Part shown: positions 6,171 through 58,333 of the stretch, in pieces | Layout of the letters: every line of letters starts with the position of its first letter | Numbering within the stretch: position 1 is the first letter of the stretch | Source: Rhodoferax sp. | Lineage (GTDB): Bacteria > Pseudomonadota > Gammaproteobacteria > Burkholderiales > Burkholderiaceae_C | Length of the DNA stretch: 64,000 bases | Direction: 5' to 3' | Assembly (NCBI RefSeq): GCF_025354435.1 | Contig: NZ_JANXMU010000024.1 | Coordinates: 2,949 to 66,948, forward strand | Translations under genes and position numbers: made by a program | Notes under the pieces: generated by a model | The model's input: only the letters and a program-made list of their open reading frames with translations | What the model was told of the DNA's origin: nothing | Database searches by the model: none

Positions 6171-6236
6171 ATTTATAAAAAATAGAGCTCTAGCGTAGGT
6201 GTTGTCTTTGCTAATAGCTATTAAAAATATAGCAAT
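6171..6236 (+). repeat. AT-rich palindromic repeat family, reference copy (intergenic)
   Basis: Sequence is atttataaaaaatagagctctagcgtaggtgttgtctttgctaatagctattaaaaatatagcaat. It matches the reverse complement of 56827..56888 at 50 of 62 ungapped positions (hand count). Confidence 0.85.
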
Positions 6237-6354
6237 TGTGAAGTGAATCACATCGATCTTTACCCCCACTTCACCACCGCAGGCTGGTGTGGGCATTGAA
6301 TTTTGGGGGCTGGGCGGTATCTACTGTGCATTCACCCATACTGTTGAGGCTTCC

Positions 6355-6999
6355 ATGAACACCCCAGAGCGCGACCAACTCACCACCTTTTTGCAGCAAC
6401 TCGGCCAGGCGCGGGCCACCGTGAAGGACGCGGAGGCGCAGACGCTGATCGAAACCGCGGTGGCCCACCAGCCCGATGCAGCCTATCTGTTGGTGCAGCG
6501 CTGCCTGCTGCAAGACAACGCCTTGCAAGCAGCCCAGGCGCAGATCGCCAGCCTGCAAGCCGAGTTACAGCAGGCCAAGTCGGCAGCCGCCACGGCACCC
6601 GCCAGCGCTAATTTTTTGGATGCCAACGGCTGGGGCCGGGCACCGGTGGCACCGGTTGCGGCCTACGCCCCGGCACCGGCCTACCCACAGGCTGCCCCAG
6701 CTGCCGCACTGGCACCCGCCGCAGCCTCGCGCTTCCAGGCCCCCAGTTTCTTGACTGGCATGGCCACCACCGCTGCAGGCGTGGCGGCAGGGGCATTTTT
6801 GTTCCAGGGGATTGAGAGCCTGATGGGCCACCACGGCAGTAGTGCGTTGGCGGGCACACCGGCTTCGGCCTTTGGCCTGAGCGAGCCGACGGCGGCTGCA
6901 CCGGAGGCGGCGCAATCCGTCGCGGATGCGAACACGGATGTGTTCGGTAACGACGACGGGCTGGATATTGGCGGCGACAGCTCCAGCGACTGGGCTTGA
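6355..6999 (+). CDS. DUF2076 domain-containing protein
   Basis: ATG 6355 lies after a GAGG. MNTPERDQLTTFLQQLGQARATVKDAEAQTLIETAVAHQPDAAYLLVQRCLLQDNALQ is followed by an Ala/Pro-rich region and a Gly-rich acidic tail, the typical DUF2076 layout. Confidence 0.75.
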   Translation: MNTPERDQLTTFLQQLGQARATVKDAEAQTLIETAVAHQPDAAYLLVQRCLLQDNALQAAQAQIASLQAELQQAKSAAATAPASANFLDANGWGRAPVAPVAAYAPAPAYPQAAPAAALAPAAASRFQAPSFLTGMATTAAGVAAGAFLFQGIESLMGHHGSSALAGTPASAFGLSEPTAAAPEAAQSVADANTDVFGNDDGLDIGGDSSSDWA

Positions 7000-7002
7000 G
7001 CT

Positions 7003-7470
7003 TTATTTGAGCGGGATGGGTGTCGCGTGGTCTACCGCCACGGCGGTGACAGCGTTTTCCGGCGAGCCGTCGATCAGCTTGTCGGAATAGGTCAGGTAGA
7101 CCAGGGCGTTGCGTTTTTTGTCCACCATGCGCACGATGCGCAGCTTTTTGAACAGGATGGACAGGCGCTCGTTGAACACCTCGTCGCTTTGCGGCAGTGG
7201 CTTGGTGAAGCTGATCGTGCCGACTTGGCGACAGGCAATGGAGGCCTCGGCCTTGTCTTCGGCTAGGCCGAAAGCACCTTTGAGCCCGCCGGTTTTGGCC
7301 CGCGAGACAAAGCAGGTCACGCCCTGTACCAGCGGATCGTCAAACGCATCAACCACGATTTTGTGGTCTGGCCCAATCCATTGGAAAGCTGTGTCCACCG
7401 AGCCAATTTGCTCGGCTTGGGCAGCGACGCAGGTGGCAGCCAGTGCCAAAGTAACAGTCCACAGTTTCAT
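7003..7470 (-). CDS. creA: CreA family protein (signal peptide)
   Basis: 155 aa. The signal peptide [19 protein letters not shown] is followed by [50 protein letters not shown]. Confidence 0.85.
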
Positions 7471-7484
7471 CCGAATCTCCAGTT

Positions 7485-7748
7485 TTAGCGCAATGCCTCA
7501 GGCAATTCGATTTTTACTTCCAGCACTTCCAGGTTGTCCTGGCGCTCCAGATGCACCTTGATGTCCTCAGCGTTGATCGACACGTACTTGGAGATCACCG
7601 CCAGCAGCTCACGCTGCAGGGCGGGCAGGTAGTCGGGGCGGCTGGCACCCCGGCCACTGCGCTCGTGCGCCAGGATGATTTGCAGCCGCTCTTTGGCCAC
7701 AGAGGCGGTTTTTTTCTTCTCGCCCAAGAAGAACGACAGGAAAGACAT
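7485..7748 (-). CDS. minE: Cell division topological specificity factor MinE
   Basis: 87 aa. [30 protein letters not shown].. Confidence 0.95.
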
Positions 7749-9513: not shown

Positions 9514-10332
9514 CTAGAAGTGGTAGTCGGCGCGGACCATTGGCGTTTTGGCCGTGGTACCGGTGATGGTGCCGGGGTTGCCAAACTTGTTGCGCCAGTA
9601 TTGGTAGCCGATGCCGACACGGAAGGTGTTTTTGCTGGAACCGAGTGTGGGGCTCAGGTCATAAAAAATGGAGCCGTCGAAATTGGTTTCGGGCGAGGTG
9701 GTGCCGCCAAATTCGTTGTTTCCCTTGGTTCCGATGTAGTTCATGTAGCCCTCGAACGACAGCCCGGTGCCGCCGATCGGTACACCCTAGGCCAACGTGA
9801 GCATGGGATGCGTTTTGTAGCTGTAACGGCTGGCGGTGCCGATGGGGAAATTGCTTTCTTTCAATACCAGCAGGCTGACGTTCAGAAAGCCTGGTACGTC
9901 GACCATCAGCGTGGGGCCCACCACAAGCATGCGCTTTTTGGAGGCGTAGTTGGGGTCGTTTTTGGTGTTCCAGTCAAAACCTGCCGTCAGGCCCAGGCCG
10001 CGCACCGGGCCGAAAGCAAAGCTTTTGCCGGTGACTTTGCCCAAGTCCAGGGTGTGGCGGTAGACTAGGTAGGCCTCTTGGGCACCGTGGTCGGTGGAGT
10101 CCGATTCGAGGATGTCCAGGTTCAGGTAGTTGCTGCCGTATTTGTAACCACTGGCATGGGTGATGTTGACGATGTTTTTGGAAATATCGCTGGGATTGAA
10201 TGGTTCCCGAAAGCTGTTGCCGTATCGGTAGCCGATGGAGGTGTCGCTCCAGTCCGCAGCGTGTGCCAGCGTGCCGGTGGTCAAAGCCGCTGCGGCTGCC
10301 AAAACAAGCGTGCCTGTGCATGTGAATTTCAT
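9514..10332 (-). pseudogene. Tsx/OmpK-like outer-membrane beta-barrel channel interrupted by one in-frame TAG (9789..9787)
   Basis: Track ORFs 9787..10389 and 9514..9744 are in the same frame (offset 273 nt). Read-through gives ..HPMLTLA*GVPIGGTGLSFEGYMNYIGTKG...RADYHF. The signal peptide MKFTCTGTLVLAAAAALTTGTLAHA starts at ATG 10332. The protein ends in an aromatic residue. Confidence 0.65.
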
Positions 10333-10400
10333 CGTGTATCCCTGGTGGTTAAGTGAACTGATTGCCCACTTCCACAGTGCAAACACCATACCAACAAATA

Positions 10401-10473
10401 CTTACATTTATTTCAAAAAATATAGCTATCTGTGTATGCCGGATATGCGCTAAAGGCCTGAAAACTTTGTAAG
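10401..10473 (-). repeat. AT-rich palindromic repeat family copy (intergenic)
   Basis: ..aaaaaatatagctatctgtgtatgccggatatgcgctaaaggcctgaaaac.. aligns with 56827..56888 (atagctgctagtgtaggtagtacatacgctagaggcct). Confidence 0.7.
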
Positions 10474-10572: not shown

Positions 10573-13140
10573 CTAGGCCGCGGCTACCCGTTGCGCCAGG
10601 TGCGCCAGGGCTTCTTCCACCTGGTCCACCAAGATTAAACACAGGTCGCCGGGTTGCAAGCGCGCCAAGGCGTGGTCGATGGCGATGAATTCGCCGTAGA
10701 TCTCGTCCACCGTGCGGGTGCGCTGGGCATTGGCCAGGCCTTCGCGCAGCAGCTTGACCACTTCGCCATCGGCACGGCCCCGCTGGCAGGCATCTTCGAA
10801 CAGGATCACGTCGTCAAACGCGTCACCCAAAATCACGGTTTGTTCGCGGATGTCTTCGTCGCGCCGGTCTCCAGCACCGCTGATGACCACCGAGCGTCGC
10901 TTGGCAGGCATGGCCTCTACGGCGGACACCAGGGCGCGCATGGCATCCGGGTTGTGGCCGTAGTCGGCAATCACCGTGGCACCCTTGTAGTCCATCACGT
11001 TAAAGCGGCCGGGGGCGTTGTCGGCATCGTTGGAAAAGCTCGACAGGCCGCGGCGGATGGTGTCCCAGTTCATGCCCACGCCCCAGGCGGCGGCCACCGA
11101 GGCCATGGCGTTGTCCACCTGGAAGGCAATGGTGCCGGCGCGGGTCAGCGGCACATCGCGCAGGGCGATCTGTTCGCGCCACGAGCCCACGGCGGCAACG
11201 ATGTGGTCGCCATCGACATACACCGTGCGCCGCCCCTGGGCGCGGTGGGTGGCCATCACCGGGTGGTGGCGGTCGGCGGTGAAGTAGATGACGTTGCCGG
11301 GGCAGGCCGTGGCCATGGCGGCGACGATGGGGTCGGCGGCATTCAGCACGGCGTAACCGGTGGCGGGCACGTTTTGCACGATGACGCGTTTGAGCACTGC
11401 CAGGTCTTCCACCGTGGTGATGTAGTTCAGGCCCAGGTGGTCGCCTGCGCCGATATTGGTGACCACGGCCACCTGGCAGCGGTCAAAGCCCAAGCCTTCG
11501 CGCAGCATGCCGCCGCGGGCGGTTTCAAACACCGCAGCATCCACATCGGGGTGCATCAGCACATTGCGGGCGCTTTTGGGGCCCGAGCAGTCGCCGCTGT
11601 CGATCTGGCGGCCATTGACGTAGACACCGTCGGTGTTGGTCATGCCGACGCGCAGGCCGCTGCTGGTGAAGAGGTGGGCGATCAGGCGGGCGGTGGTGGT
11701 TTTGCCGTTGGTGCCGGTAACGGCCACCACCGGAATGCGGCCATCGTCGCCCGCCGCATACAGGTTGCTGACCATGGCTTCACCCACATTGCGGCCCTTG
11801 CCGAACGAGGGCGAGATGTGCATGCGCAGGCCGGGTGCGGCGTTGACTTCGACGATGCCGCCGTGCTGGTCTTCCAGCGGCTTGAGCATGCTTTCGCAGA
11901 CCACGTCCACGCCGCAGATGTGCAAGCCGATCATCTGGGCAGCGGCCACCGCCTGGGCGGCGACGGCGGGGTGCACGTCGTCGGTCACGTCGGTGGCGGT
12001 GCCGCCAGTGCTCAGGTTGGCGTTGTTACGCAGAATCACGCGGCGGCCGATGGTGGGCACCGAGTCCGGGGCCAGATCTTGCAGCGCCAGCCGGGCGATG
12101 GCGATGTCGTCAAAGCGGATCTTGGTCAGCGAGGTGGCATGGCCTTCGCCGCGCTTGGGGTCGGAGTTGACGATATCCACCAGCTCGCGCACGGTGTGTA
12201 CGCCGTCGCCCAGCACCTGGGGTGGGTCGCGGCGGGCTGCAGCCACCAGCTTGTTGCCCACCACCAGCAGGCGGAAGTCGCTGCCGGGCAAGAATTTCTC
12301 GACCATCACTTCGCCGATTTCGGCAGCCGCCGCGAAGGCCGCTTCCAGGTGCGCGCGGTCTACGATGTTGACCGTCACGCCCTTGCCCTGATTGCCGTCT
12401 TGCGGCTTCACCACCACGGGCAAGCCGATTTCCATTGCTACTTGCCAGGCTTCGTCCAGCGTTTCCACCGGGCGGCCCAGCGGGACCGGAACACCGGCGG
12501 CGTGCAGCAGTTTTTTGGTCAGGTCTTTGTCCTGGGCGATGGCTTCGGACACGGCGCTGGTCAGGTCGAATTCCGCGGCCTGGATGCGGCGCTGGCGCGA
12601 ACCCCAGCCAAATTGCACCATGCTGCCCTTGGTCAGGCGGCGGTAGGGGATGCCCCGGGCCACGGCGGCATCCACGATGGCCCCGGTGCTGGGGCCCATG
12701 CGCTCGTCCTCGTCGGTTTCGCGCAGCTGGGCGATGGCGGCATCTTTGTCGAATGCGGTGTGGTTCAGCGCCGCCTGTATCAGGGCCTGGGCCAATTCCA
12801 GCGCCTGGCGGCCCACGGCTTCTTCGCTGTACTCCACCACCACCTGGTAGATGCCAGTCTGTTCGGTAGCCGAGGTGCGGCTGAAGGTGACCGGGCAGCC
12901 AGCCTGGGCCTGCAGCGCCAACGTGGCGGCTTCCAGCACATGGGCCAGCGACACCGAACCGTGTTCGCGGTTGGGGCGCAACGGTCCGATGGCGGGGAAC
13001 AGGGCGCGCACGGCGACCTCGAACCCGGGAATCTGGGCAATAGCCTGCTCAGATTCCGCGCAGGCCACCACGGCTTCCACAGCGGTATGGCGGCTCCAAA
13101 GATTAGGGCCGCGCAGGGCCCGGATGCGTGAGACTTCCAT
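10573..13140 (-). CDS. cphA: Cyanophycin synthetase (855 aa, canonical)
   Basis: MEVSRIRALRGPNLWS.. N domain, then an ATP-grasp domain, then a Mur-ligase-like M domain with an intact P-loop VAVTGTNGKTTTARL (11715..11695). Confidence 0.9.
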   Translation of the reverse strand: MEVSRIRALRGPNLWSRHTAVEAVVACAESEQAIAQIPGFEVAVRALFPAIGPLRPNREHGSVSLAHVLEAATLALQAQAGCPVTFSRTSATEQTGIYQVVVEYSEEAVGRQALELAQALIQAALNHTAFDKDAAIAQLRETDEDERMGPSTGAIVDAAVARGIPYRRLTKGSMVQFGWGSRQRRIQAAEFDLTSAVSEAIAQDKDLTKKLLHAAGVPVPLGRPVETLDEAWQVAMEIGLPVVVKPQDGNQGKGVTVNIVDRAHLEAAFAAAAEIGEVMVEKFLPGSDFRLLVVGNKLVAAARRDPPQVLGDGVHTVRELVDIVNSDPKRGEGHATSLTKIRFDDIAIARLALQDLAPDSVPTIGRRVILRNNANLSTGGTATDVTDDVHPAVAAQAVAAAQMIGLHICGVDVVCESMLKPLEDQHGGIVEVNAAPGLRMHISPSFGKGRNVGEAMVSNLYAAGDDGRIPVVAVTGTNGKTTTARLIAHLFTSSGLRVGMTNTDGVYVNGRQIDSGDCSGPKSARNVLMHPDVDAAVFETARGGMLREGLGFDRCQVAVVTNIGAGDHLGLNYITTVEDLAVLKRVIVQNVPATGYAVLNAADPIVAAMATACPGNVIYFTADRHHPVMATHRAQGRRTVYVDGDHIVAAVGSWREQIALRDVPLTRAGTIAFQVDNAMASVAAAWGVGMNWDTIRRGLSSFSNDADNAPGRFNVMDYKGATVIADYGHNPDAMRALVSAVEAMPAKRRSVVISGAGDRRDEDIREQTVILGDAFDDVILFEDACQRGRADGEVVKLLREGLANAQRTRTVDEIYGEFIAIDHALARLQPGDLCLILVDQVEEALAHLAQRVAAA

Positions 13141-15386
13141 CAGTCGGTCTTTCTATCTTCTTGTTCGGTACGGGGTGCGGCCGGGGGCAGGGTGGCGCGT
13201 ACAGGGGGCGTGGGGCGGACGGTGGGCAGGTCCAGTTCGAAGGTCTTGAGCCCGGCCACAATCAAATCGGGCGAAATATCCATCGCCCAAGCGGCGGCAA
13301 TCGAAGCCAGGATGGGCTCCAGCTGCGCCGGAGTGGTCCAGTTGGCGGTGAGCCGCTCCAGGTTGACCAGCGGCACTTCGGCACTGCCGGTAGCCAGCAT
13401 GATGTGGCCTTTGTGGATGATGACTGCTCTGCCGCCTAAAGCACGGTGTGCAATGGTGGTGGGGAGTAGCGGGTCAATTCCATACAAAATGGCGGAGCCG
13501 TCGCAAAGCTCGGCCATCGCGGCCACGCGCTCGTCCACAGCATTCAGCACGGCCACGCCTTCGGCCAGCACTACGTCCACCTGGGTGCGTAGCACTTTCA
13601 CCAGTTGGTCGTCTTCGGTAATGTCGAATTCGGCCAGCGTGGAGGCGCCACCCAGGTCGGTAACGATGCCGACGATGCAGCGGTCGTAGGCCAGGCCATC
13701 GCGCAGGATGCTGGCGGCCCCGTTTTCGATTACGGCGGCTTCCATCGAGCGGTTGATCAGCAGGCGGTGGGCTGGTTCCCAGTGGGCGCAGTCCTTGGTT
13801 TCGATGCGCCGGGTGTCCAGAAACAAGCCGTCGCGGCAGGCCAGGCCGACGCGCTTACCGCTCAGGTGCAACAGCCAGGCGACCAGCCGGGCGATGGTGT
13901 GCGTGCCCTGGGTACCGGCCACGCCCACGATGGGGATGCGGCCGGTCTCGTCTTCGTCAAACAGGTGGTCTACGATGGCGCGGCCTACCGGGCGGGGCGA
14001 GCCCTCGGCGGGTTTCAGGTGCATCAGCAAGCCTGGGCCGGCGTTGACTTCCACAATCGCGCCGCCCTGGGGGCCTAGCGGTTTGGAGATGTCTTCGCAC
14101 ACCACGTCCACCCCGGCAATGTCCAACCCGACGATGCGCGCCGCCAGAGACACGATGTGGTCCACCTCGGGGTGCATCAAGTCAGTGCAGTCGATGGCGA
14201 CGTTGCCGTTGCGTTGGATCAGCACCTGTTTGCCCGCCGCGGGCACCGCATCAGGCGAGAGACCCTGGCGCTGCAGGTCCAGCAGCACAGCTTCGTCTTT
14301 GTAGGTGTCGATCAGGCCCAGCGGCGCGTCTTCGTGGGTGCCACGGCGCGGGTCGGTGTTGATGTGTGCGTCTACCAGTTCGGCCACGGTGGACTGGCCG
14401 TTGCCCGTGACCCAGGCGACCGAACCCCGGGCGGCGGCGACCACGCGGCCACCCACCACCAGCAGGCGGTGCTCGTTGCCGCGCACAAAGCGCTCGACCA
14501 GCACTTCGCTGCCGTGCTGCTCGGCCACCAGGTAGGCAGCTTCCACATCGGCCTGGGTGCTCAGGTCCAGTGCCACGCCCCGGCCGTGGTTGCCGTCGGA
14601 CGGCTTTACTACTACCGGCAGGCCCACGTCTTGTGCGGCATCCCAGGCGGCTTGCGGGCTGTCGACCACCACGCCTTCGGGCACCGGCACGCCGCAGGAC
14701 TGCAGCAGGGTCTTGGTCAGATCTTTGTCGTGGGCAATGCCCTCGGCAATCGCGCTGGTGAATTCGGTTTCGGCCGTCCAGATGCGGCGCTGGCGGGCAC
14801 CATGGCCCAGTTGCACCAGGTTGCCGTCGTTCAGGCGGATGTGCGGGATGCTGCGGTCGGTGGCGGCGGCCACGATGCAGGCGGTGCTGGGGCCGAGGTA
14901 GCAGTCGTCGACCTCGGTGCGCACAGCGGCAACGGCAGCGGACACGTCAAACGGCTGGTCGTTGATGGCGGCCATCAGCAACCGGTGGCCCTGGGCCAGG
15001 GCGGTGCGGGCAACCTGCTCGTCGCGGGCCCGGAACACCATGCGGTACACGCCGCGCTGCGAGGTGCTGCGGGTCTGACCAAAGCCGGTGGGCATGCCCG
15101 CTAGGTTCAGCAGCTCGATGACCACGTGCTCCAGCGTATGGCCGGCCCAGGTGCCCTCTACCAGCCGCTGCAGAAAGCCGCCACGCTCGCCCACGCCGCA
15201 GTGGTGCTCCACCAGGGCGGGCAGCAGGGCGACCAGACGGTCGGTAAAACCGGGCAGCAGGTTAGAAGGAAATTCTTCCAGTTCCCCCAGGTCGAGCCAG
15301 ACTTCGAGGGCGGGCCGGTAGGTCCAGATGTTGGGGCCACGCAAATAATTGATGCGCAGCAGTTGGATATCGTCCTTGGGGCTCAT
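13140..15386 (-). CDS. Cyanophycin synthetase paralog (748 aa) with a degenerate M-domain P-loop
   Basis: LLRINYLRGPNIWTYRPALEVWLDLGELE.. has the same three-domain layout. The M-domain P-loop reads VGVAGTQGTHTIARL (13916..13896), so the Lys is lost. Its stop overlaps the downstream cphA ATG by 1 nt. Confidence 0.85.
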   Translation of the reverse strand: MSPKDDIQLLRINYLRGPNIWTYRPALEVWLDLGELEEFPSNLLPGFTDRLVALLPALVEHHCGVGERGGFLQRLVEGTWAGHTLEHVVIELLNLAGMPTGFGQTRSTSQRGVYRMVFRARDEQVARTALAQGHRLLMAAINDQPFDVSAAVAAVRTEVDDCYLGPSTACIVAAATDRSIPHIRLNDGNLVQLGHGARQRRIWTAETEFTSAIAEGIAHDKDLTKTLLQSCGVPVPEGVVVDSPQAAWDAAQDVGLPVVVKPSDGNHGRGVALDLSTQADVEAAYLVAEQHGSEVLVERFVRGNEHRLLVVGGRVVAAARGSVAWVTGNGQSTVAELVDAHINTDPRRGTHEDAPLGLIDTYKDEAVLLDLQRQGLSPDAVPAAGKQVLIQRNGNVAIDCTDLMHPEVDHIVSLAARIVGLDIAGVDVVCEDISKPLGPQGGAIVEVNAGPGLLMHLKPAEGSPRPVGRAIVDHLFDEDETGRIPIVGVAGTQGTHTIARLVAWLLHLSGKRVGLACRDGLFLDTRRIETKDCAHWEPAHRLLINRSMEAAVIENGAASILRDGLAYDRCIVGIVTDLGGASTLAEFDITEDDQLVKVLRTQVDVVLAEGVAVLNAVDERVAAMAELCDGSAILYGIDPLLPTTIAHRALGGRAVIIHKGHIMLATGSAEVPLVNLERLTANWTTPAQLEPILASIAAAWAMDISPDLIVAGLKTFELDLPTVRPTPPVRATLPPAAPRTEQEDRKTD

Positions 15387-19146: not shown

Positions 19147-19175
19147 AAAAAGCCGCTCCCAGAGCGGCTTTTTTT
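19147..19175. terminator. Bidirectional Rho-independent terminator
   Basis: aaaaAGCCGCTCccaGAGCGGCTttttttt has an 8-bp GC-rich stem flanked by an A-run and a T-run. It lies between convergent genes. Confidence 0.85.
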
Positions 19176-20937
19176 ATAGGGCGGTTTGCGCGATCTGGTA
19201 GCGCGCAACGGCCCCTGCGGGTTGCGGCTCCAGCGTCCAGCGCTGGTTGTGGAAGGCTGCTACACCCGGGCGGTGTGCTATTGAAATAATAGCGCCTTGT
19301 GCAGATTCTACCTGGGCTAGAAGCCGTTTATATATCAAATTCTCGGCCACGGCATCCAGCGCGCTGGTGGCTTCGTCGGCAAAAATCCAGCGCGGCTTTT
19401 TCAGCAGCACCCGGGCGATCGCCAGCCGCTGCTGCTCGCCACCCGATAGTTTTTGGCCCCAGGCGGCTTCCTGGTCCAACTGGTCGGCCAGGTCGGGCAG
19501 CAGTGCGTCTACCAGGGCCTGGCGCAGGGCCTCGTCGGTGTAGCCGCTGGCGGCGGTGGGGTAGGCCAGGGCGCTGCGCAAGGTGCCGTCGGGGAAATAG
19601 GGGCGCTGGGGGATAAACATCGCGTCGGCTGGCAGGGCAATCTGCCCGCTGCTGAACGGCCAGATGGCGGCAAACGCGCGGAACAGCGTGGATTTTCCGC
19701 TGCCCGAAGGTCCGCTGAGCAAAATGTGGTCGCCAGGGCGGGCTTGCAGGTTGACACCGTTCAGTAGCACGCTGCCGTCCGGCAGGCGCAGCGTCAGGTT
19801 GCGGGCTTCCAGGGTGCTGCCTGCTACTGAATTAGTAGCTGCTTGCGAAGACTGCACCAGCGCTAGAGCCTGAATTTGTTCTTCAAACGAGGTCAGCCGG
19901 TCGGTGGTGGCGCGCCAGGTCGCCAGGCTGCTGTAGTTGTCGACAAACCAGCTCAGCGAGTCTTGCACCCGGCCAAACGCCGATGAGATCTGCATCAGCG
20001 TGCCCAATTGGATGGCACCGCTGAAAAACCGCGGTGCGGCCACGATGAACGGAAACACCACCGCTGCCTGGCCAAAGAAGCTGTTAAACCAGATCAGGCG
20101 CTTTTGGGCCTTCAGCAACTTCAGGTAGTTGACCAGCACGGCCCCAAAGCGCATGTTCAGGTGGGCGCGTTCGACCTTTTCGCCGTGGTCCAGTGCAATC
20201 GATTCGCTGTATTCGCGCACCCGCACCATGTGGTGCCGAAAATCGGCCTCGACGCGCTGCTGCTGGAAGTTCAGTTTGATCTGCGGACGGCCAATGTAGA
20301 AGGTGATGATGCTGCCCGCCAGGCAGTACAGCAGGGCCATCCAGACCATGAAGCCGGGCACAAAGTATTCGCTGCCGCCGAAGTGGAACGAAAAGTCGCC
20401 CGACAGTTTCCACAAAATCCCGACAAAGCTCACCAGGGTGACCACCGAATTCAGCACGCCCATGCACAGGCCAATGGTCAGGCCGGTGAACTGGTTCAGG
20501 TCTTCCTGGATACGCTGGTCGGGGTTGTCGGGCCCGGCCTCCGGGTTGGCCTTGGCGAAGCGGGCCAGCTCCATTTTGTAGAAGGCCTGGTTGGACAGCC
20601 AGCGCACCAGGTAGTGCGTGGTCATCCAGGCGCGCCAGCGCATTTCCAGCAGCTGGGTCAGGTAAAACTTGTACACCGCCAGCACGATCAGGGCAAAGGC
20701 GATGTAAGTAAAGCGCCCCAGCTGCTGCCAGAACACCGCCGAGTCCTTGTTTTGCAGCGCGTCGTAGAACACCTGGTTCCAGTTGTTCAGCAGCACCAGC
20801 AGGTAGACCCCCAACAGGTTCAGCGCCACGATGGAGGCCAGCAGGGCGCGGGCTTTCCATTTTTCTTCGGACTGGAAATACGGGATCGACAGCTTCCAGA
20901 CTTGGGCGGTCTGGGCTTTCAGGTTGGCGAGGCGCAT
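19174..20937 (-). CDS. ABC transporter, fused permease/ATPase of the YddA / SbmA-BacA-like (ABC_membrane_2) type
   Basis: 587 aa. ..WNQVFYDALQNKD..RIQEDLNQFT.. is the family membrane domain. Walker A is GPSGSGKST, signature is LSGGEQQR, and Walker B is IFADEATSALD. Confidence 0.85.
   Translation of the reverse strand: MRLANLKAQTAQVWKLSIPYFQSEEKWKARALLASIVALNLLGVYLLVLLNNWNQVFYDALQNKDSAVFWQQLGRFTYIAFALIVLAVYKFYLTQLLEMRWRAWMTTHYLVRWLSNQAFYKMELARFAKANPEAGPDNPDQRIQEDLNQFTGLTIGLCMGVLNSVVTLVSFVGILWKLSGDFSFHFGGSEYFVPGFMVWMALLYCLAGSIITFYIGRPQIKLNFQQQRVEADFRHHMVRVREYSESIALDHGEKVERAHLNMRFGAVLVNYLKLLKAQKRLIWFNSFFGQAAVVFPFIVAAPRFFSGAIQLGTLMQISSAFGRVQDSLSWFVDNYSSLATWRATTDRLTSFEEQIQALALVQSSQAATNSVAGSTLEARNLTLRLPDGSVLLNGVNLQARPGDHILLSGPSGSGKSTLFRAFAAIWPFSSGQIALPADAMFIPQRPYFPDGTLRSALAYPTAASGYTDEALRQALVDALLPDLADQLDQEAAWGQKLSGGEQQRLAIARVLLKKPRWIFADEATSALDAVAENLIYKRLLAQVESAQGAIISIAHRPGVAAFHNQRWTLEPQPAGAVARYQIAQTAL
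19277..19342 (-). repeat. AT-rich repeat family copy inside the ABC ATPase coding sequence
   Basis: gctattgaaataatagcgccttgtgcagattctacctgggctagaagccgtttatatatcaaattc matches 56827..56888 at 37 of 54 ungapped positions (hand count). It encodes ENLIYKRLLAQVESAQGAIISIA between the D-loop and the H-loop. Confidence 0.7.
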
Positions 20938-39938: not shown

Positions 39939-39976
39939 TCTGACGCTGGCGCAAGCCAGTTGACGGTTTGAACTTC

Positions 39977-40010: not shown

Positions 40011-40060
40011 TTGCGTGTTTGAAATGCATTGGCCTTTAAAGAGGCCAATGCCGAGAAACC

Positions 40061-40996: not shown

Positions 40997-41008
40997 GGGA
41001 AATTCTTT

Positions 41009-41509: not shown

Positions 41510-41610
41510 GCTAAATATTCGATATTTATAGTTTATTTTTTCTTTTATTTGTCCATATTGTAATATTTTTGGAATCCATATTTCGAAATGGCTAGGTAGG
41601 ATTCGCCGCC

Positions 41611-43137: not shown

Positions 43138-43185
43138 CTACTAGCGCTTATCCCATCAGCACAAGCACCCTAAAAAGCATCAAAC
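43117..43185 (-). repeat. AT-rich repeat family copy spanning the last 6 codons and stop of the desulfurase-rhodanese gene
   Basis: caattgctatctaaagagtagctactagcgcttatcccatcagcacaagcaccctaaaaagc. In frame it reads QLLSKE-stop. Confidence 0.6.
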
Positions 43186-43650: not shown

Positions 43651-43912
43651 AGCGGGATGTTCCTGGAAAAATGGCACCTGGACGGTGTTTTGCTTACTTT
43701 GTATGACGCGCCAAGCGGAAGATGGTTGACAGGGTCTCCCTGGCATTGGTTCCATCGGCAACGTGAACGGTGTGTAAACGGCAGACAATAGTGGTCTGCA
43801 TGGAGCAGGGCCCCGCGCCCCTTACCGGCCATGCAACGCTCCGCACAATTCCCTTGTCCTTTTCGCCTGAAAGTCCGCCCCATTGGTGGGCTGCGGCCTT
43901 GTATTGCCTACC

Positions 43913-45130: not shown

Positions 45131-45190
45131 AATAGGCCGATAGCGCATTTTCTGCTTACGCTAGTAGCTATTTTAAATATAGCAATGCAC
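45122..45190 (+). repeat. AT-rich repeat family copy filling the convergent MFS/pqiC gap
   Basis: aaacaataaaataggccgatagcgcattttctgcttacgctagtagctattttaaatatagcaat matches 6171..6236 at 43 of 66 ungapped positions (hand count). It overlaps the MFS stop codon. Confidence 0.8.
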
Positions 45191-45810
45191 TAACCTGGGC
45201 AGGTGGCGGCAGCGTCTGCATCTAGCGCCTTGACCGACGTCGCCATGCTTTGCGCCGCGCGGCTGGTCAGGCGCTGTGCGCCCTGGGCCAGGGCGGCTAT
45301 GCCAGAGCCCACGGGCTCAGCCTGGCTCCATTGGCAGGCCAGAGTGCGGCTGACCATGCCGGTGCTGTCCAGACGGCGAATGGTCCAGCTGAAGCTGGCC
45401 TGCACCTGGCTGTCCACAGTGGCATCCCACTGGCGCAGTTGCACAGCGATGCGGTAGACCGGCTGGCTGGCCAGGCGGCCGCCGGTGGTTACGTCGATAG
45501 CGCCCAGCTGCTGGGTGATACCGCTCACCAGCGCGTCGTGCAGCTCGCTGTCAAACGGTGCGGCCCAGCGGTGCAGGTCCAGAATGTCTACCGGCGCGCT
45601 GGCGCTGCGAACCACCAGCTGCGGGCGCACCAAGCGCTCGGGCAGGGCGATAGGCGGGATTTCAACCTGCAGCGCGCTGGCCGGTGCCATGGTGGCTATA
45701 ACGGCCGGGGCTAGGCTGTAGTAGCGCACAGCAGGCCTAGTGGCACAGCCCGCCAGGACGGCCACCATGGCCAGGGCGGCCAGGGCTGTGGCGTGACGGG
45801 TCAACTTCAT
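45190..45810 (-). CDS. pqiC: PqiC-like (YmbA/DUF330) lipoprotein, membrane-integrity transporter subunit
   Basis: The lipobox is LAGC. ..VRYYSLAP..PERLVRPQLVV.. The gene lies downstream of pqiB with a 4-nt overlap. Confidence 0.8.
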   Translation of the reverse strand: MKLTRHATALAALAMVAVLAGCATRPAVRYYSLAPAVIATMAPASALQVEIPPIALPERLVRPQLVVRSASAPVDILDLHRWAAPFDSELHDALVSGITQQLGAIDVTTGGRLASQPVYRIAVQLRQWDATVDSQVQASFSWTIRRLDSTGMVSRTLACQWSQAEPVGSGIAALAQGAQRLTSRAAQSMATSVKALDADAAATCPG

Positions 45811-48914: not shown

Positions 48915-49415
48915 ATGAGCCGTGAACTGCGCGATGCGTTTGGCTGCTTTGCCACCGGCGTGACGCTGGTCACCACCCATTGGAATGGGCAGGATTGGGG
49001 CATGACCTGCAGCTCGTTCAACGCGGTGTCGCTGGACCCGGCCCTGGTGCTGTGGAATATCCGCCACAGCAGCGCCAGCCATGAGGCATTTGTGCGCGGC
49101 GGCGGCTACACGGTCAGCGTGCTGGGCATCGAGCACAAGGAACTCGCCCAAGCGTTTGCCCGGGGCACCCAGGCCGAGCGTTTTGCGGCGGGGCAGTTTA
49201 TGCGGCGGGACAACCAGCGTCTGCAACTGGTGGACGCGTTGGCCTGGTTTGACTGCACGCTGCAGCAGGCCGTTACCGCGGGCGACCACGACATCCTGAT
49301 CGGCCAGATTAACCACAGCGGCAGCCGCCTTGGCAAGGGGCTGGTGTTTGAACGCGGACAGTTTGCGGTCGACACGCTGGAGGTGGGCGTTGCGCCGACC
49401 TCGTCGTTTGAATGA
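48915..49415 (+). CDS. Flavin reductase family protein
   Basis: 166 aa. LRDAFGCFATGVTLVTT..GMTCSSFNAVSLDPALVLW.. Confidence 0.85.
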   Translation: MSRELRDAFGCFATGVTLVTTHWNGQDWGMTCSSFNAVSLDPALVLWNIRHSSASHEAFVRGGGYTVSVLGIEHKELAQAFARGTQAERFAAGQFMRRDNQRLQLVDALAWFDCTLQQAVTAGDHDILIGQINHSGSRLGKGLVFERGQFAVDTLEVGVAPTSSFE

Positions 49416-50191
49416 CCGATTGGATCGTCCCCGACTGGCCCGCACCCGCCCAGGTGCGCGCCGTGTTCACCACCCGCGCCGGGGGCGTATCGGCCGCGCC
49501 ATATGACGCACTTAACCTGGGCGACCATGTCGGCGATGTGCTGGCCGATGTGCAGGCCAACCGCGCCCGACTGGCCGATGCGATAGCCGCCCAGCCGGTG
49601 TTTCTACAGCAGGTGCATGGCCGCGTAGTGGCGCACCTGACCGGGCCGTCTCAGGCGCCGGTGGTGGCCGATGCCAGCTTCACCACCCAGCCCGGCATCG
49701 CCTGCACCGCCATGGTGGCCGACTGCCTGCCGGTGCTCTTCACCGACACACGGGGCACCGTGGTGGCTGCTGCGCACGCGGGCTGGCGTGGCCTGCTGGG
49801 GACGGACGGGCAGGGCGTGTTGGAATCAATTTATAAAGAAATAACAGTTCAGGCGCATGTGGCATCTGCACAAGCAGCTACAGAAATAATAGCGTGGCTG
49901 GGTCCGTGCATTGGACCAACCGCCTTCGAGGTGGGGCCGGAAGTGCCTGCCGCCTTCATTGCCCAGCAGCCCGAGGCCGCCGCGTTGTTTGTACGCCACG
50001 GCCCCGACAAATGGTTGGCTAATCTGCCAGGGCTGGCGCGGCTGCGTTTGCAGGCGCTGGGCTTGCAGGGCATTTACGGCAACGACGGCAGCCTGGACTG
50101 GTGCACCGTCAACCACCCCTCACGCTTCTTCTCGTACCGGCGCAGCGGGGTCTGTGGGCGCATGGCTGCCTGCATCTGGCTGCAGGCCTAG
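49412..50191 (+). CDS. pgeF: Peptidoglycan editing factor PgeF (YfiH/DUF152 family)
   Basis: 259 aa. ..VFTTRAGGVS..YDALNLGDHVGD..ADCLPVLF..AAHAGWRGL..FFSYRR..GRMAACIWL. Confidence 0.9.
   Translation: MTDWIVPDWPAPAQVRAVFTTRAGGVSAAPYDALNLGDHVGDVLADVQANRARLADAIAAQPVFLQQVHGRVVAHLTGPSQAPVVADASFTTQPGIACTAMVADCLPVLFTDTRGTVVAAAHAGWRGLLGTDGQGVLESIYKEITVQAHVASAQAATEIIAWLGPCIGPTAFEVGPEVPAAFIAQQPEAAALFVRHGPDKWLANLPGLARLRLQALGLQGIYGNDGSLDWCTVNHPSRFFSYRRSGVCGRMAACIWLQA
49829..49894 (+). repeat. AT-rich repeat family copy inside pgeF
   Basis: atttataaagaaataacagttcaggcgcatgtggcatctgcacaagcagctacagaaataatagcg. It encodes SIYKEITVQAHVASAQAATEIIA. Confidence 0.75.
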
Positions 50192-50542: not shown

Positions 50543-52264
50543 ATGCATTCTGATCCAGACTGGGCCAAAACCGCCCAGCAATTCCAGCAGACCTTGGGCG
50601 ACACATGGACACGGGCCTGGGCCGATGCCGTCAAGCCCATCCAGGGGCTGGATTTGGGCGTGCCAGTGGGTGGCATGGCCGCCGCACCCCAGATCAATTT
50701 TTCCGCCGCCAAGCTGCAGGCTTTGCAAAAGCAGTATCTGGAAGAATCTGCTGCGCTGTGGAACCAGAGCATGGATGCCGCCGCCATCGCCAAAGACAAG
50801 CGTTTTTCGGCCAAGGCCTGGGCTGAAAATCCCCTCACCGCGTACAACGCCGCCTCGTACCTGCTGACCAGCCGCACCCTGATGGGCCTGGCCGATGCCG
50901 TCGAGGCCGACGACAAAACCCGCGCCCGCATCCAGTTTGCGGTGGAGCAGTGGATGGCCGCGTCTGCGCCCAGCAACTATCTGGCGATGAACGCTGATGC
51001 GCAAAAGAAGCTCATCGACACCCAGGGCGAAAGCCTGGCCAAGGGCCTGAAAAACCTGATGCACGACATGCAGCAAGGCCATGTGTCCATGACCGACGAA
51101 AGCCTGTTCGAGGTGGGCCGCAATGTGGCCACCACCGAAGGCGCGGTGGTGTTTGAGAACGAGTTGTTCCAACTGATCGAATACAAGCCGCTCACGGCCA
51201 AGGTCTACGCCAAGCCGTTCTTGCTGGTGCCACCCTGCATCAACAAGTATTACATCCTTGATCTGCAGCCCGAAAATTCGCTGATCCGCTATGCGGTGGA
51301 ACAGGGCAACCGCACCTTTGTGGTCAGTTGGCGCAACCCCGACAAGTCCATGGGCGACAAGACCTGGGACAACTACATCGAAGACGCTGCTATTAAATCA
51401 ATAGCTGTCACCCAAGAGATTACGGGTGCCAAGACCATCAATGCCCTGGGATTTTGCGTGGGCGGCACTATCCTGAGCACGGCCGTGGCCGTGCTGGCGG
51501 CGCGCGGCGAAAAGCCGGTTTCCAGCCTGACCCTGCTGACCACGCTACTGGACTTCACCGACACCGGCATCATCGACATCTTTGTGGATGAGGCCATGGT
51601 GCAGTACCGCGAAAAGCAAATGGGCAAGGGCGGCCTGTTGCCCGGCGGCGATTTGTCTAGCACCTTCAGCTTCTTGCGCCCGAATGATTTGGTGTGGAAC
51701 TACGTGGTGGGCAACTACCTCAAGGGCGAAACCCCGCCGCCGTTTGACCTGTTGTACTGGAACAGCGACTCTACCAACCTGCCCGGCCCGTTTTATGCGT
51801 GGTATTTGCGCAATACCTATCTGGAAAACAAACTGGTGCAACCCGGCAAAGCTACCGTCTGCGGCGAAAAGATCGACCTGCGCAAGGTCGACATCCCTGC
51901 CTACATCTACGGATCGCGCGAAGACCACATCGTGCCGATTGGTGGTGCCTACGCGTCCACCCAGCACCTGCCTGGCAAGAAGCGCTTTGTGATGGGGGCC
52001 TCGGGCCACATCGCGGGGGTCATCAACCCCCCGGCCAAAAAGAAGCGCAGCCACTGGATCAGCGATGCCACCACCTTCCCGGCCAAAGCCGAGGACTGGA
52101 TTGCCGGTGCCCAGGAACATGCCGGTAGCTGGTGGACCGACTGGTCGGCCTGGCTCAAAGGCCATGCGGGCAAGCAAATTGCCGCGCCCACCGAGTACGG
52201 AAACGCCGATTACAAGGCGATTGAACCCGCGCCGGGCCGCTACGTAAAAGCCCGCGCACAGTAG
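50543..52264 (+). CDS. phaC: Class I poly(3-hydroxyalkanoate) synthase
   Basis: 573 aa. The lipase-box-like motif is GFCVGGT. ..NKYYILDL..RNPD.. GAGGA lies upstream of the ATG. Confidence 0.95.
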   Translation: MHSDPDWAKTAQQFQQTLGDTWTRAWADAVKPIQGLDLGVPVGGMAAAPQINFSAAKLQALQKQYLEESAALWNQSMDAAAIAKDKRFSAKAWAENPLTAYNAASYLLTSRTLMGLADAVEADDKTRARIQFAVEQWMAASAPSNYLAMNADAQKKLIDTQGESLAKGLKNLMHDMQQGHVSMTDESLFEVGRNVATTEGAVVFENELFQLIEYKPLTAKVYAKPFLLVPPCINKYYILDLQPENSLIRYAVEQGNRTFVVSWRNPDKSMGDKTWDNYIEDAAIKSIAVTQEITGAKTINALGFCVGGTILSTAVAVLAARGEKPVSSLTLLTTLLDFTDTGIIDIFVDEAMVQYREKQMGKGGLLPGGDLSSTFSFLRPNDLVWNYVVGNYLKGETPPPFDLLYWNSDSTNLPGPFYAWYLRNTYLENKLVQPGKATVCGEKIDLRKVDIPAYIYGSREDHIVPIGGAYASTQHLPGKKRFVMGASGHIAGVINPPAKKKRSHWISDATTFPAKAEDWIAGAQEHAGSWWTDWSAWLKGHAGKQIAAPTEYGNADYKAIEPAPGRYVKARAQ

Positions 52265-53573: not shown

Positions 53574-53611
53574 TTTATTGCGTATTTTTTAAAACAAACA
53601 GGAGATAAAAC

Positions 53612-54370: not shown

Positions 54371-54397
54371 AAAAACCCGCTTCGGCGGGTTTTTTTA
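54371..54397. terminator. Bidirectional Rho-independent terminator
   Basis: aaaAACCCGCttcgGCGGGTTttttt lies between phaB and the convergent LysR gene. Confidence 0.85.
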
Positions 54398-56307: not shown

Positions 56308-56346
56308 TGGAGAGCCGGGCCTGTGCATTGCCGCCCAGGCCCGGTT

Positions 56347-56742
56347 TTAGTTGGCGGGCACCGGCACGATGGTGACGCTCTCGCGCAGCACGCCGCCGCT
56401 TTGCGCGCTGCCCTCTACGCCCTCGGGCTGGCGCATGCGGGCTTCGCAGTCTTTACGGTCATCGCCCTGGAACACGGCACAGCGGCGCAAGGCGTTTTGC
56501 TGGTACTCCGAAGGTGCTTCCGTTGTCAGGCCACCCCGGCGGGATTCGGCCAGGGCGCGCTCGGCTTCGATTTTGCAGGTGGCGACATTCTGGTTGGACT
56601 TGCCGCTGTTGCACAGCGCCATGTCTTGCTTGTAGCGGGCCTGGGCACTGGCGGAAGCGGCGGGGTCGGCGGCCTGTGCTGCCGCGGTGCACAGCAGTGC
56701 GGTCAAAAATAGGGTGCGGCAAAGGGTGGTGCGAATGGACAT
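56347..56742 (-). CDS. Secreted Cys-containing hypothetical protein
   Basis: ATG 56742 gives MSIRTTLCRTLFLTALLCTAAAQA, a signal peptide. The mature part has four Cys. I recognise no family. Confidence 0.55.
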   Translation of the reverse strand: MSIRTTLCRTLFLTALLCTAAAQAADPAASASAQARYKQDMALCNSGKSNQNVATCKIEAERALAESRRGGLTTEAPSEYQQNALRRCAVFQGDDRKDCEARMRQPEGVEGSAQSGGVLRESVTIVPVPAN

Positions 56743-56827
56743 GGTGGAATCCTGGATAGTCATCAGGCAACCAATATGCGCCTCGGCGCGGCTGCCGTCT
56801 GTGCGGCGGCGCACATACCGACCATAC

Positions 56828-56893
56828 TATATTTTTAATAGCTGCTAGTGTAGGTAGTACATACGCTAGAGGCCTATTTTTTATAAATTTTTA
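56828..56893 (-). repeat. AT-rich repeat family copy overlapping the MocR stop codon
   Basis: tatatttttaatagctgctagtgtaggtagtacatacgctagaggcctattttttataaattttt. The last codons AKNL-stop of the MocR gene lie inside it. Confidence 0.85.
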
Positions 56894-58293
56894 GCCAGAG
56901 CTCCCAACGTTGCCATGGCTGCTTCCATCCGGGCATCCCAGGGGTGGCCGAAGTTCAGGCGGATGCAGTGGCGCAAACCTTGCCGGGCCGAGAACATGGG
57001 CCCCGGCGCGATGCTGATGCCCTGGACCAGCGCCTGCTGGTGCAAGGCCAGTGCGTCAAAGCCGGGCGCAAACGCCACCCACACAAAGTAGCCGCCACCG
57101 GGCTGTGACACTTGCACGTCGGCCGGAAAGTAGCGGGCAATGGCCGCCACCAGGCTGGCGTGTTGCGACTCCAGCACATGGCGCAGGCGGCGCAGGTGCT
57201 TGTCGTAGCCGCTGTGCTGCAGGTAGTCGGCCAGGGCCACCTGGGCGGGCAGGCTGGCACCCAGGGTGGTCATCAGCTTGAGCTGCGCAATCCGCGGGCC
57301 AAAGCGCCCGGGGGCCACCCAGCCCACCCGGTAGCCCGGGGCCAGGGTTTTGCTGAAGGAGCTGCAGTGCATCACCAGGCCTTGCTGGTCGTAGGCCTTG
57401 GCGGGTAGCGGGGCCTGGCTGCCGAAGTACAGCTCGCCGTACACATCGTCTTCGATCAGCGGAATCTGGCGGGCCGCCAGCAGGGCCACCAGCCGCTGCT
57501 TGCCCGCCGCCGACAGGCTGGCCCCGGTGGGGTTCTGGAAGCTGGTCATGAACCAACAGGCCTTGACCGGGTGGCGGTTCAAGGCCTGCTCCAGTGCGTC
57601 CAAGTCCAGGCCGTGCTGGGGGTGCACGGGGATTTCCAGCGCCCGCATCTTCAGCCGCTCCAGCGTTTGCAGGCTGGCGTAAAAGCCGGGCGACTCCACC
57701 GCCACCAGGTCGCCGGGCTGGGCCACGGCGGCCAGGCACAGATTCAGCGCTTCGAGTGCGCCGCTGGTCACCACCAGGTCTTCGGGCGGCTGGGCCATGC
57801 CCATGGCCAGGTAGCGCAGCGCAATCTGCTGGCGCAGCCCGGCATGGCCCTGCGGCAGGTGCTGCACCGATTCCCATGGCTGGCTGCGGCGCATGCTGCG
57901 GCCCAGCGACTGGGCCAGGCGCTGTAGTGGAAACAGCGCGGGCGAGGGAAAGGCCGAACCCAGCGGCGCAATGTCGCGCTGCTGGGCTGCGTCCAGCACC
58001 GCAAACACCAGGCCGCTGATGTCCACCCGGGCCGCCACCTGCGCGGGCGCGGCCAGCGCCCGGGGTGCCGGGGCGGGCAGGGCGACGGCTCCGGTGACGA
58101 AGTAGCCCGAGCGTTCACGCGCCCGCACCAGGCCCTTTTCTTCCAGCCGGTAATAGGCCTGGAAGGCGGTGGACGGGCTGATGCCGTACTGCGCCGTGAG
58201 CGTGCGGATGGACGGCATGCGGCTGCCTGGCGCGCGCTGGCCAGAGCGGATGTCGGTGGCCAGCAGATCGGCGAGTTGTTCGTAACGTTTTAT
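56881..58293 (-). CDS. MocR-type regulator (GntR wHTH fused to a PLP aminotransferase-like domain); start codon unresolved
   Basis: The aminotransferase-like body is clear. The first canonical start (ATG 58218, the track start) lies inside the wHTH. The frame stays open upstream to 58350 and encodes ..IKRYEQLADLLATDIRSGQRAPGSR-M-PSIRTLTAQYGISPSTAF. ATA 58293 would give the expected N-terminus. Confidence 0.7.
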   Translation of the reverse strand: MKRYEQLADLLATDIRSGQRAPGSRMPSIRTLTAQYGISPSTAFQAYYRLEEKGLVRARERSGYFVTGAVALPAPAPRALAAPAQVAARVDISGLVFAVLDAAQQRDIAPLGSAFPSPALFPLQRLAQSLGRSMRRSQPWESVQHLPQGHAGLRQQIALRYLAMGMAQPPEDLVVTSGALEALNLCLAAVAQPGDLVAVESPGFYASLQTLERLKMRALEIPVHPQHGLDLDALEQALNRHPVKACWFMTSFQNPTGASLSAAGKQRLVALLAARQIPLIEDDVYGELYFGSQAPLPAKAYDQQGLVMHCSSFSKTLAPGYRVGWVAPGRFGPRIAQLKLMTTLGASLPAQVALADYLQHSGYDKHLRRLRHVLESQHASLVAAIARYFPADVQVSQPGGGYFVWVAFAPGFDALALHQQALVQGISIAPGPMFSARQGLRHCIRLNFGHPWDARMEAAMATLGALAKNL

Positions 58294-58333
58294 GCGCAGC
58301 TTTCCATCTGAGCTGTAGATTTTTACATTTTTG
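58278..58333 (-). repeat. Probable diverged AT-rich repeat family copy over the MocR 5' end
   Basis: ..ttttatgcgcagctttccatctgagctgtagatttttacattttt resembles the family arm cgctagagctctattttttataaat. It is an AT-rich patch in a GC-rich gene. Confidence 0.4.

Follow-up and report, generated by a model that had tools for sequence, protein, structure and literature searches.

An AT-rich palindromic DNA element at fixed sites between and within genes of Rhodoferax and Polaromonas, with a centre that evolves in concert

In a 64,000-nt stretch of the genome of Rhodoferax sp. (RefSeq assembly GCF_025354435.1, contig NZ_JANXMU010000024.1, positions 2,949 to 66,948 of the forward strand), hereafter the window, short AT-rich imperfect palindromes recur on both strands, between genes and also inside them, against a background of about 65% GC. 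Two questions are raised by this locus: whether these patches form one family of sequences, and what holds such a sequence in protein-coding genes, be it mobility, a role in RNA or recognition as DNA. Protein homologues and a Betaproteobacteria small-RNA match assign the window to a Rhodoferax/Albidiferax-like member of the Comamonadaceae, the closest named relatives being Comamonadaceae bacterium OS-1 and an uncultured Albidiferax. In the best reading of the results described below, the palindromes are old, vertically inherited composite DNA sites of about 70 bp, specific to the Rhodoferax/Polaromonas part of the Comamonadaceae. That they are maintained recognition sites with a co-evolving reader is proposed tentatively, with somewhat less than even confidence.

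The dispersed family is real and far beyond chance. It was searched for with two nhmmer models, one built from the eight best copies and the other, to avoid circularity, from nine intergenic copies only, six of which came from other genomes. The eight-copy model recovers its seeds at E < 1e-14 and adds six non-seed matches, and the matches are split between the strands as 6 plus and 8 minus (Table 1). The intergenic-only model finds 13 copies and one dyad-only site in the 64 kb, which corresponds to one per ~4.6–4.9 kb, and scores the in-gene copies at 12.9–47 bits (E from 4.5e-3 to 7.7e-14), whereas the best score among 4,200 dinucleotide-shuffled copies is 10.8 bits. A repeat finder pairs 6169–6232 with 56827–56890 (64 nt, 81% complementary), and the strict dyad AGCTAY-N7-RTAGC is observed 7 times against 0.03 expected. 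The GC content at third codon positions (GC3) is 0.36 within the in-gene copies and 0.83 outside them. The first-pass annotation of this DNA had described a single related family with imperfect-palindrome arms, a GCTAT..ATAGC mini-dyad and AT islands in a GC-rich genome, and had considered that the similarity might prove no better than that of shuffled AT-rich controls. The description is borne out on all three counts by these figures, and the similarity is better than that of the shuffles.

The anatomy of the element was read from a sequence logo, for which 101 copies were gathered by iterated search. From left to right, the element consists of an A/T-rich arm (ATTTATAAGAAATA), visible in all lineages; a left box (GGCCTCTAGCSC; CT-TAGCSC in the logo); a lineage-dependent centre of ~20 bp; a right box (GCGCAAGC), whose sequence partly complements the left one; and the dyad AGCTAYT-N5-AATAGCA, which is universal across the family. 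Invariant or nearly so in the right part of the logo is GCGC-AAG-c-AGCTAYT-n-AWW-nn-ATAGC(A).

Eight of the copies lie wholly within Pfam-confirmed genes, two of them in the same ABC transporter gene, and the dyad-only site, in phaC, is also genic. The host open reading frames (ORFs) that Pfam supports as real are those of the SbmA/BacA-type ABC transporter, GspF, GspD, GspK, CobC, CobS, the cysteine desulfurase-rhodanese protein, PgeF/YfiH and PhaC. Of the remaining copies, 43118–43162 overlaps the stop codon of csdA, and 45115–45188, 56822–56895 and the degenerate 10420–10459 are intergenic, although each of the first two also runs into a stop codon. Within genes the copies occur in either orientation relative to transcription. 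It had been claimed that many copies lie in genes without ever breaking the frame, and that the TAG of the intergenic copy is absent from the coding copies; the first claim holds, and the frame with the two TAGs is indeed avoided. It had further been noted that three copies read on the same strand use the same frame; of the same-strand coding copies, 4 of 5 do so, the gspK copy being in the other open frame. The earlier list of copies needs some revision. It missed 19819–19887 and 42438–42491; the copy that it placed at 33398 is real but fits the minus strand better; its end fragment at 22400 belongs to the family but is actually a degenerate copy (22354–22423, plus strand); and its fragment at 51388, said to consist of GCTAT..ATAGC only, is indeed the dyad-only site. 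The copies proposed at 58278 and 18290 give no match, or only 2 bits, and the end fragment proposed at 2668 is not significant.

The in-gene matches might instead be unrelated AT-rich patches, or ancestral coding sequence that resembles the repeat by chance or through its peptide pattern. This explanation is highly improbable. In its favour, the length of the ABC and PhaC segments is ancestral, and so is part of their peptide; ancestral coding sequence was among the refuting outcomes that the first-pass annotation itself had named. The DNA match, however, includes synonymous positions and there runs against a GC3 of 0.83, and the in-gene E values of the intergenic-only model stand against shuffles that do not exceed the score given above (for gspK 7.7e-14, ABC copy 2 1.8e-10, gspD 1.3e-8, ABC copy 1 4.9e-8, pgeF 4.8e-7, cobC 1.1e-6, gspF 5e-5 and cobS 3.3e-4). 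Moreover, the same peptide is encoded by GC-rich, unmatched DNA in Polaromonas (ABC) and in genera without the element (PhaC), and the in-gene copies carry the lineage-specific centre of their own genome.

To follow the family in other genomes, comparison loci (designated by L-numbers) were taken around pgeF from 80 species-level genomes, together with loci encoding close homologues of PgeF or of the ABC transporter; L086 is OS-1 and L088 is a Polaromonas. The density is 1–1.5 copies per 10 kb in the sampled Rhodoferax, Polaromonas and allied genomes, and the family is weak in one Acidovorax. The sampled loci of Ramlibacter (128 kb), Variovorax (89 kb), Hydrogenophaga, Curvibacter and Caenimonas yielded no copy. 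The positions are conserved. L004 (PgeF 88% identical) and L001 (79%) have all 5 copies from 41–58 kb of the window at the same sites, and all 6 copies at 9–31 kb are present at the same sites in OS-1, so that 0 of 11 copies have shifted over ~40 kb of shared synteny. The pgeF copy is present in most Rhodoferax/Polaromonas loci, including a R. ferrireducens-like genome with 64% protein identity. Many Polaromonas, and also Acidovorax caeni, carry a copy directly behind the stop codon of phaA, a site that is empty or holds half a dyad in other genomes. A right half-dyad (TTTTGTAGCG...) or a similar remnant is seen before the phaB ribosome-binding site in the phaA-phaB spacer of L055, in L070 and at 53574–53611 of the window. 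Such remnants, at a place where relatives carry the full element, suggest decay by deletion.

The centre behaves differently from the rest of the element. Non-orthologous copies of one genome have a common centre: for the pgeF copy, the mean identity of the centre is 0.66 to the paralogous copies of its own genome and 0.55 to the orthologous pgeF copies of other genomes, an order that holds for 21 of 24 genomes. Position by position, the extra identity among copies of the same genome (up to +0.33) is seen only at model positions 8–31; it is zero in the left arm, in the dyad and in the variable loop of the dyad. The dyad loops are specific to the site; for example, TTATTTG is found at the phaA site in several genomes. 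Because the similarity is confined to the centre, recent duplication of a master copy does not account for the copies of a genome; homogenisation or co-selection affects the centre only. The in-gene copies obey the same rule, and the linker and loop peptides that they encode therefore track the DNA centre of the lineage (for example, ALAQQGRAQSA in Polaromonas versus ALAPVDTA in R. ferrireducens-like genomes). Taken together, the fixed positions and the confinement of similarity to the centre argue against an element that is mobile now or was so recently.

Inside genes, it is the DNA sequence of the element that is conserved, in spite of a strong codon bias towards GC, and most of the in-gene copies are not 70-bp insertions. 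ABC copy 2 can be aligned residue by residue, with +2 aa, to the ATPase domain of M. tuberculosis Rv1819c; the outgroup representatives also have the +2, and there are zero indels among 120 orthologues. The Polaromonas transporter has a similar peptide of the same length (LYDKLLASVRSAQGSLVSIAHRP) in ordinary GC-rich codons, with no match to the model. The codons GCT ATT ATT TCA ATA GCA are identical in the window, OS-1 and a R. ferrireducens-like genome, while the ABC proteins are ~73% identical, and the AT-rich codons of this copy are kept in OS-1 and L089. ABC copy 1 lies in a linker of a length typical of the protein family, and in both L088 and L089 it has the centre characteristic of the respective lineage.

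The phaC site involves no length change at all. The peptide AAIKAIA is ancestral across the family and is usually encoded by GCC GCC ATC AAG GCC ATC GCC; in 6 element-bearing genomes, and in 0 of the element-free genera, the dyad is present as GCT ATY AAR nnn ATA GCn, built by synonymous changes that include the rare ATA codon. In gspD, the copy encodes the hydrophobic core of the signal peptide, and by translation the OS-1 orthologue does likewise. The pgeF copy is intermediate. E. coli YfiH is without 8 residues at this site, and the segment comprises 20–30 residues (mostly 26) at 0.65–0.83 GC in the element-free genera and at least 34 residues at 0.39–0.51 GC in the element-bearing genomes. 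With segment lengths of 34 versus ~26 aa, the 69-nt element therefore adds just 24 nt net, and the codons under its arms are homologous to those of the ancestral 'TLYAAL' and 'RELMV'. In the AlphaFold model of PgeF (mean pLDDT 82.6) the copy corresponds to a helix end, a loop and a strand start, the same helix-loop-strand pattern as in the ABC ATPase domain.

An in-frame insertion of the whole element is suggested by gspK only. The copy adds ~21–23 residues to the prepilin-type leader before RQGG|AALL, and the frame is open through the element from the ATG that overlaps the gspJ stop, both in the window and in OS-1. The apparent insertion is judged by the usual length of GspK leaders. In OS-1 the public gene call for gspK (L086 601–1572) starts at a TTG within the element, and the AT island probably misleads the start-site prediction there. 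Four direct repeats nearby, at 30955–32203 of the window (...CAGGGTGAAACC...), are the reverse complement of conserved GFTLIE prepilin N-termini; they belong to the type II secretion pseudopilin genes and lie outside the AT-rich family.

These observations bear on the foremost rival explanation, that of an ancient non-autonomous mobile element, of the kind of miniature inverted-repeat transposable elements (MITEs), of repetitive extragenic palindromes (REPs) and REPINs, or of Rickettsia palindromic elements (RPEs), which would have spread long ago, at times in frame into tolerant protein segments, and would now be immobile and homogenised by ectopic gene conversion. We consider it unlikely, yet deserving of serious weight. 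A dispersed family with imperfect inverted repeats is what it would leave behind; GspK shows an apparent in-frame extension by the whole element, PgeF has gained 8 aa, with some species keeping an ancestral '..ILV' tail behind the element, the phaA-phaB spacer displays presence and absence, and the left arms supply stop codons at gene ends. A same-strand gene end is located at the left arm in 26 of 70 non-genic copies and at the right end in 10, but these counts are not independent and are not used as evidence, since orthologous sites inflate them. On the other side, there is no positional difference between genomes over the shared synteny, the ABC copies add no length, the dyad of PhaC arose from synonymous substitutions, and the lack of within-genome similarity at neutral arm and dyad-loop positions means that there was no recent copy-and-paste. 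No target duplications were seen in the flanks, and the ends (ATTTATAA.. and ..AATAGCAAT) are not inverted repeats. Of the marks of a MITE, then, neither terminal inverted repeats, nor duplication, nor polymorphism of the whole unit was found, and the lone polymorphism, in the spacer, resembles a deletion by which half a dyad was spared. There was no transposase and no REP-associated tyrosine transposase (RAYT) among 30 scanned proteins of the window, and a blastn search of plasmid and phage collections with the best copy gave no match, to which the low-complexity filter may have contributed.

A role in RNA was considered next to mobility. The copies could act as terminators, as stabilising or processing hairpins (RNase E or RNase III sites), or as modules for sense-antisense pairing, and there is some basis for this: many copies sit between convergent genes or just behind a stop codon, a hairpin with a T-run after it can be read on the reverse strand, a GC-rich stem lies between AU-rich arms, and, with both orientations present, transcripts could pair. 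The tests at the RNA level tend to speak against it. RNAalifold gave no consensus structure (-0.5 kcal/mol), single-sequence folding z-scores are weak (mean -0.76), and, although 81% of the cells of the named two-helix structure pair in register versus 15–42% when slid, its covariation equals that of shuffles, and the dyad pair 37/45 barely covaries. No relevant Rfam family was found, either in the whole window at the gathering threshold or for one copy at an E-value threshold. No sigma-70 promoter or terminator consensus site was found on any of the nine copies (eight copies and the phaC dyad site) in the 33 kb that were scanned. In-gene copies occur in either orientation, and one full copy sits between divergent gene starts. 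An RNA-level element is thus a long shot among the explanations considered.

Two other features of the window touch on RNA. The sole match at the Rfam gathering score, Betaproteobacteria_toxic_sRNA (RF02278, 54.2 bits; 35686–35749, minus strand), is directly upstream of the start of the threonine dehydratase gene (34054–35685, minus strand); therefore, it may not be an independent small RNA but a 5' leader of ilvA. Just after phaB there is a textbook intrinsic terminator (54371–54394, plus strand) with a 10-bp GC-rich stem and a T-run. Canonical terminators do exist in the window, and they look unlike the repeat.

The element may be compared with several known systems. To our knowledge, on informal comparison, none of the consensuses of XerC/D dif sites, KorB/ParB operators, IHF sites, sigma-54 promoters or ops fits it. 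The RPEs, which Ogata et al. are said to have described in 2000, are reportedly 100–150 bp long and add 30–50 residues to their hosts. The present family is like them in being palindromic, in residing in genes without breaking the frame, in being translated in tolerated segments, and in the conservation of orthologous sites between species. It differs in size (~70 bp), in its concerted, lineage-specific centre, and in the length gained in genes, which is 0 to +2 aa in ABC, 0 in PhaC and +8 in PgeF, so that none of these three hosts is lengthened by a full element. The resemblance to in-frame RPEs noted in the first-pass annotation is therefore valid as regards residence in genes with the frame kept; whole, selfish in-frame insertion would fit gspK only, where it is judged against the typical leader length. 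No sequence or taxonomic relation is apparent, the hosts being Comamonadaceae and Rfam having no counterpart, and the family is set apart on these grounds without a direct comparison of RPE sequences.

The DNA uptake sequences (DUS) of Neisseriaceae and the uptake signal sequences (USS) of Pasteurellaceae have cores of 10–12 bp (~30 bp with flanks) and occur about once per kb. In both those systems and the present one, copies occur in both orientations, many of them in genes, in particular frames and in tolerant parts; they originate by substitution, keep orthologous positions and vary in concert between lineages, and intergenic copies are near gene ends. Over-representation, both orientations, substitutional origin and lineage 'dialects' at orthologous sites are all found here. 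In contrast, this element is a composite of ~70 bp at 1–1.5 per 10 kb, far from a short core once per kb. Among the genes of the window there is a cluster for type II secretion and none for competence, and nothing relevant was found in the literature on uptake sequences or natural competence in genera of the Rhodoferax/Polaromonas type.

With REPs, bacterial interspersed mosaic elements (BIMEs) and the REPIN-RAYT system, the family has in common that they are short palindromic chromosomal repeats, mostly just outside genes, vertically inherited and long-lived. It differs in that it has no GTAG/CGTC head, the dyad reading ATAG in 87% and GTAG in 12% of cases; it is AT-rich (35–50% GC), with no GC-rich palindrome and with a second dyad; a quarter to half of the copies are in genes; within-genome similarity is limited to the centre; and no RAYT was seen among the scanned genes of the window. 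The earlier judgement that this is not an ordinary REP/BIME is thus confirmed.

Parts of the family have been seen before. In a 2017 motif survey (PMC5217627), ATAGCT(N)22CAAAAG was listed for Polaromonas naphthalenivorans CJ2 with 125 copies, 81% of them intergenic, 14% in genes and 34 copies between convergent genes; the supplement gives pairs such as GCTAT(6)TATAG and CTATA(6)ATAGC. Rhodoferax ferrireducens T118 was the richest in motif pairs of the genomes surveyed (140), with ~34% in genes. These motifs are the same family read on the reverse strand, as the ATAGCT box and the GCTAT..ATAGC dyad indicate. They were listed only as 'potential novel motifs', without an element model, taxonomic range, positional conservation, overprint, concerted evolution or explanation, and no description of the element as such was found in the literature. 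BRE (PMC3110155), a dispersed repeat of Bordetella and Polaromonas that has been reported from R. ferrireducens and Polaromonas sp. JS666 and lies in part within coding sequences, was considered and rejected; being ~90 bp long and GC-rich (69%), it is a different sequence family.

Under the preferred reading, that of recognition sites with a co-evolving reader, a sequence-specific factor would read the elements as DNA. A conserved part of the factor would read the dyad and the boxes, and a fast-evolving part of it, or short-patch copy-correction, would keep the centres of a genome uniform. In genes the motif would mostly overwrite existing codons wherever the peptide is compatible, as in helix-loop-strand segments, signal or leader peptides, linkers and transmembrane helices. 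It would do so by substitutions or by short replacement tracts with small length changes, and insertion of a whole element in frame would be only occasional, apparently in gspK. As for the role of the reader, binding by a nucleoid or topology protein, as IHF and gyrase bind REP/BIME, may be ranked first, and a species-specific uptake or recombination signal, similar to the DUS dialects, second.

Several points weigh against this reading. The function is an inference. The comparison set, built around pgeF and the ABC gene, amounts to ~1.4 Mb and consists mostly of metagenome-assembled genomes, and the absence of a transposase refers to the scanned part of the window genes. With the boxes 81% complementary in register, a role as a hairpin or cruciform, or single-strand transposition, stays conceivable. 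Lengths compatible with insertion are found in PgeF (34 versus ~26 aa) and in the GspK leader (~+21 aa), and the phaA-phaB spacer shows the element present in some genomes and absent in others. Finally, at ABC copy 2 the difference between lineages may reflect decay as well as overprinting.

A bolder version, which appears rather improbable, is that the elements are chromosome-wide 'self' tags, in which the universal dyad is combined with a lineage barcode of ~20 bp kept uniform across hundreds of fixed sites. The uniformity would be due to a co-evolving reader or to dedicated short-patch copy-correction. Examples might be a DNA-uptake or recombination signal of unusual length, or else a templated or RNA-guided system, and the drive would have to be strong enough to overwrite codons of the ABC ATPase, of signal peptides and of PhaC.

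The copies are listed in Table 1. The ORFs 56347–56814 and 9787–10389 (both minus strand), each directly downstream of an element copy, have no Pfam match. There is no element copy in the 9-kb gap from 33450 to 42436. Two divergent Porin_4 genes (37125–38375, minus; 38826–39938, plus) are located in the stretch of lowest GC in the window (0.54). At 10573–15386 (minus strand) there are two adjacent paralogous cyanophycin synthetase genes, identified from the syntenic OS-1 locus, with direct-repeat families at a constant spacing of 2201–2204 nt.

Table 1. Copies of the element in the window, with their matches to the eight-copy model, other scores and surroundings
Feature	Position	Strand	Eight-copy model match	Other scores	Surroundings
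Full intergenic copy	6169–6237	+	6169–6237+, E<1e-14	53 bits, E ~1e-15	Between divergent NIR_SIR-type cobalamin-cluster gene (4769–6061, -) and DUF2076 gene (6289–6999, +)
Degenerate copy	10420–10459	-	10420–10459-, 7e-4	15.5 bits (seed model), 11.2 bits (intergenic-only model)	Between cyanophycin synthetase gene (10573–13140, -) and ORF 9787–10389 (-); same site in OS-1, L086 20464–20519
ABC copy 2	19273–19341	-	19273–19341-, E<1e-14		ABC transporter (19174–20937, -), aa 533–555, helix-loop-strand between D-loop and H-loop (NLIYKRLLAQVESAQGAIISIAH)
ABC copy 1	19819–19887	-	19819–19887-, E<1e-14		Same transporter, aa 351–373, linker of membrane and ATPase domains
Degenerate gspF copy	22354–22423	+	22366–22422+, 9e-4		Opposite strand to gspF (21891–23117, -); transmembrane helix LIAIIVIAIS with ATT/ATA codons; same site in OS-1, L086 8500–8577
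gspD copy	26619–26685	+	26619–26685+, E<1e-14		Opposite strand, start of gspD (24525–26714, -)
gspK copy	30257–30324	-	30257–30324-, E<1e-14		In frame right behind the start codon, which overlaps the gspJ stop
Degenerate cobC copy	33021–33090	+	33036–33090+, 7e-6		Opposite strand to cobC (32666–33244, -), Pfam His_Phos_1
Degenerate cobS copy	33396–33450	-	33396–33450-, 7e-7		Same strand as cobS (33252–34052, -); weak counterpart at the same place in Polaromonas cobS, L088 8186–8241
Degenerate copy	42436–42491	-	42438–42491-, 2e-3	4.5e-3	Opposite strand in cysteine desulfurase-rhodanese gene (41611–43137, +); orthologous matches L001 2019–2071, L004 2886–2919
Partial copy	43118–43162	-	43119–43162-, 4e-4	7.5e-4	Last codons and stop of the same gene; orthologous matches L001 2747–2800, L004 3583–3635
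Full intergenic copy	45115–45188	+	45120–45187+, E<1e-14	1.6e-17	Between convergent MFS transporter (43883–45130, +) and pqiC-like gene (45190–45810, -); left arm overlaps MFS stop; same site in L001, L004
pgeF copy	49829–49899	+	49829–49899+, E<1e-14		pgeF/yfiH (49412–50191, +), aa 140–163
phaC dyad-only site	51387–51407	.			GCTATTAAATCAATAGC in phaC (50543–52264, +), encodes AAIKSIA; exact AGCTAY-N7-RTAGC match
Full copy	56822–56895	-	56822–56889-, E<1e-14	66.9 bits, E 6.5e-20	Between GntR-aminotransferase gene (56881–58218, -), whose stop codon the left arm provides, and ORF 56347–56814 (-); same site L001 15489–15556, L004 15601–15665

If recognition sites are what these elements are, a large group of Betaproteobacteria common in fresh water and soil would have such maintained sites by the hundred in its DNA, and signal peptides, linkers and a segment of an ATPase domain would follow a DNA motif and not the reverse. 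In practical terms, gene callers may place start codons wrongly because of the AT islands, and the family offers a ready clade marker. The combination of fixed positions with concerted evolution in only a ~20-bp lineage-specific centre is unusual for bacterial repeats, and this pairing would provide a handle for finding a new DNA-recognition or copy-correction system.

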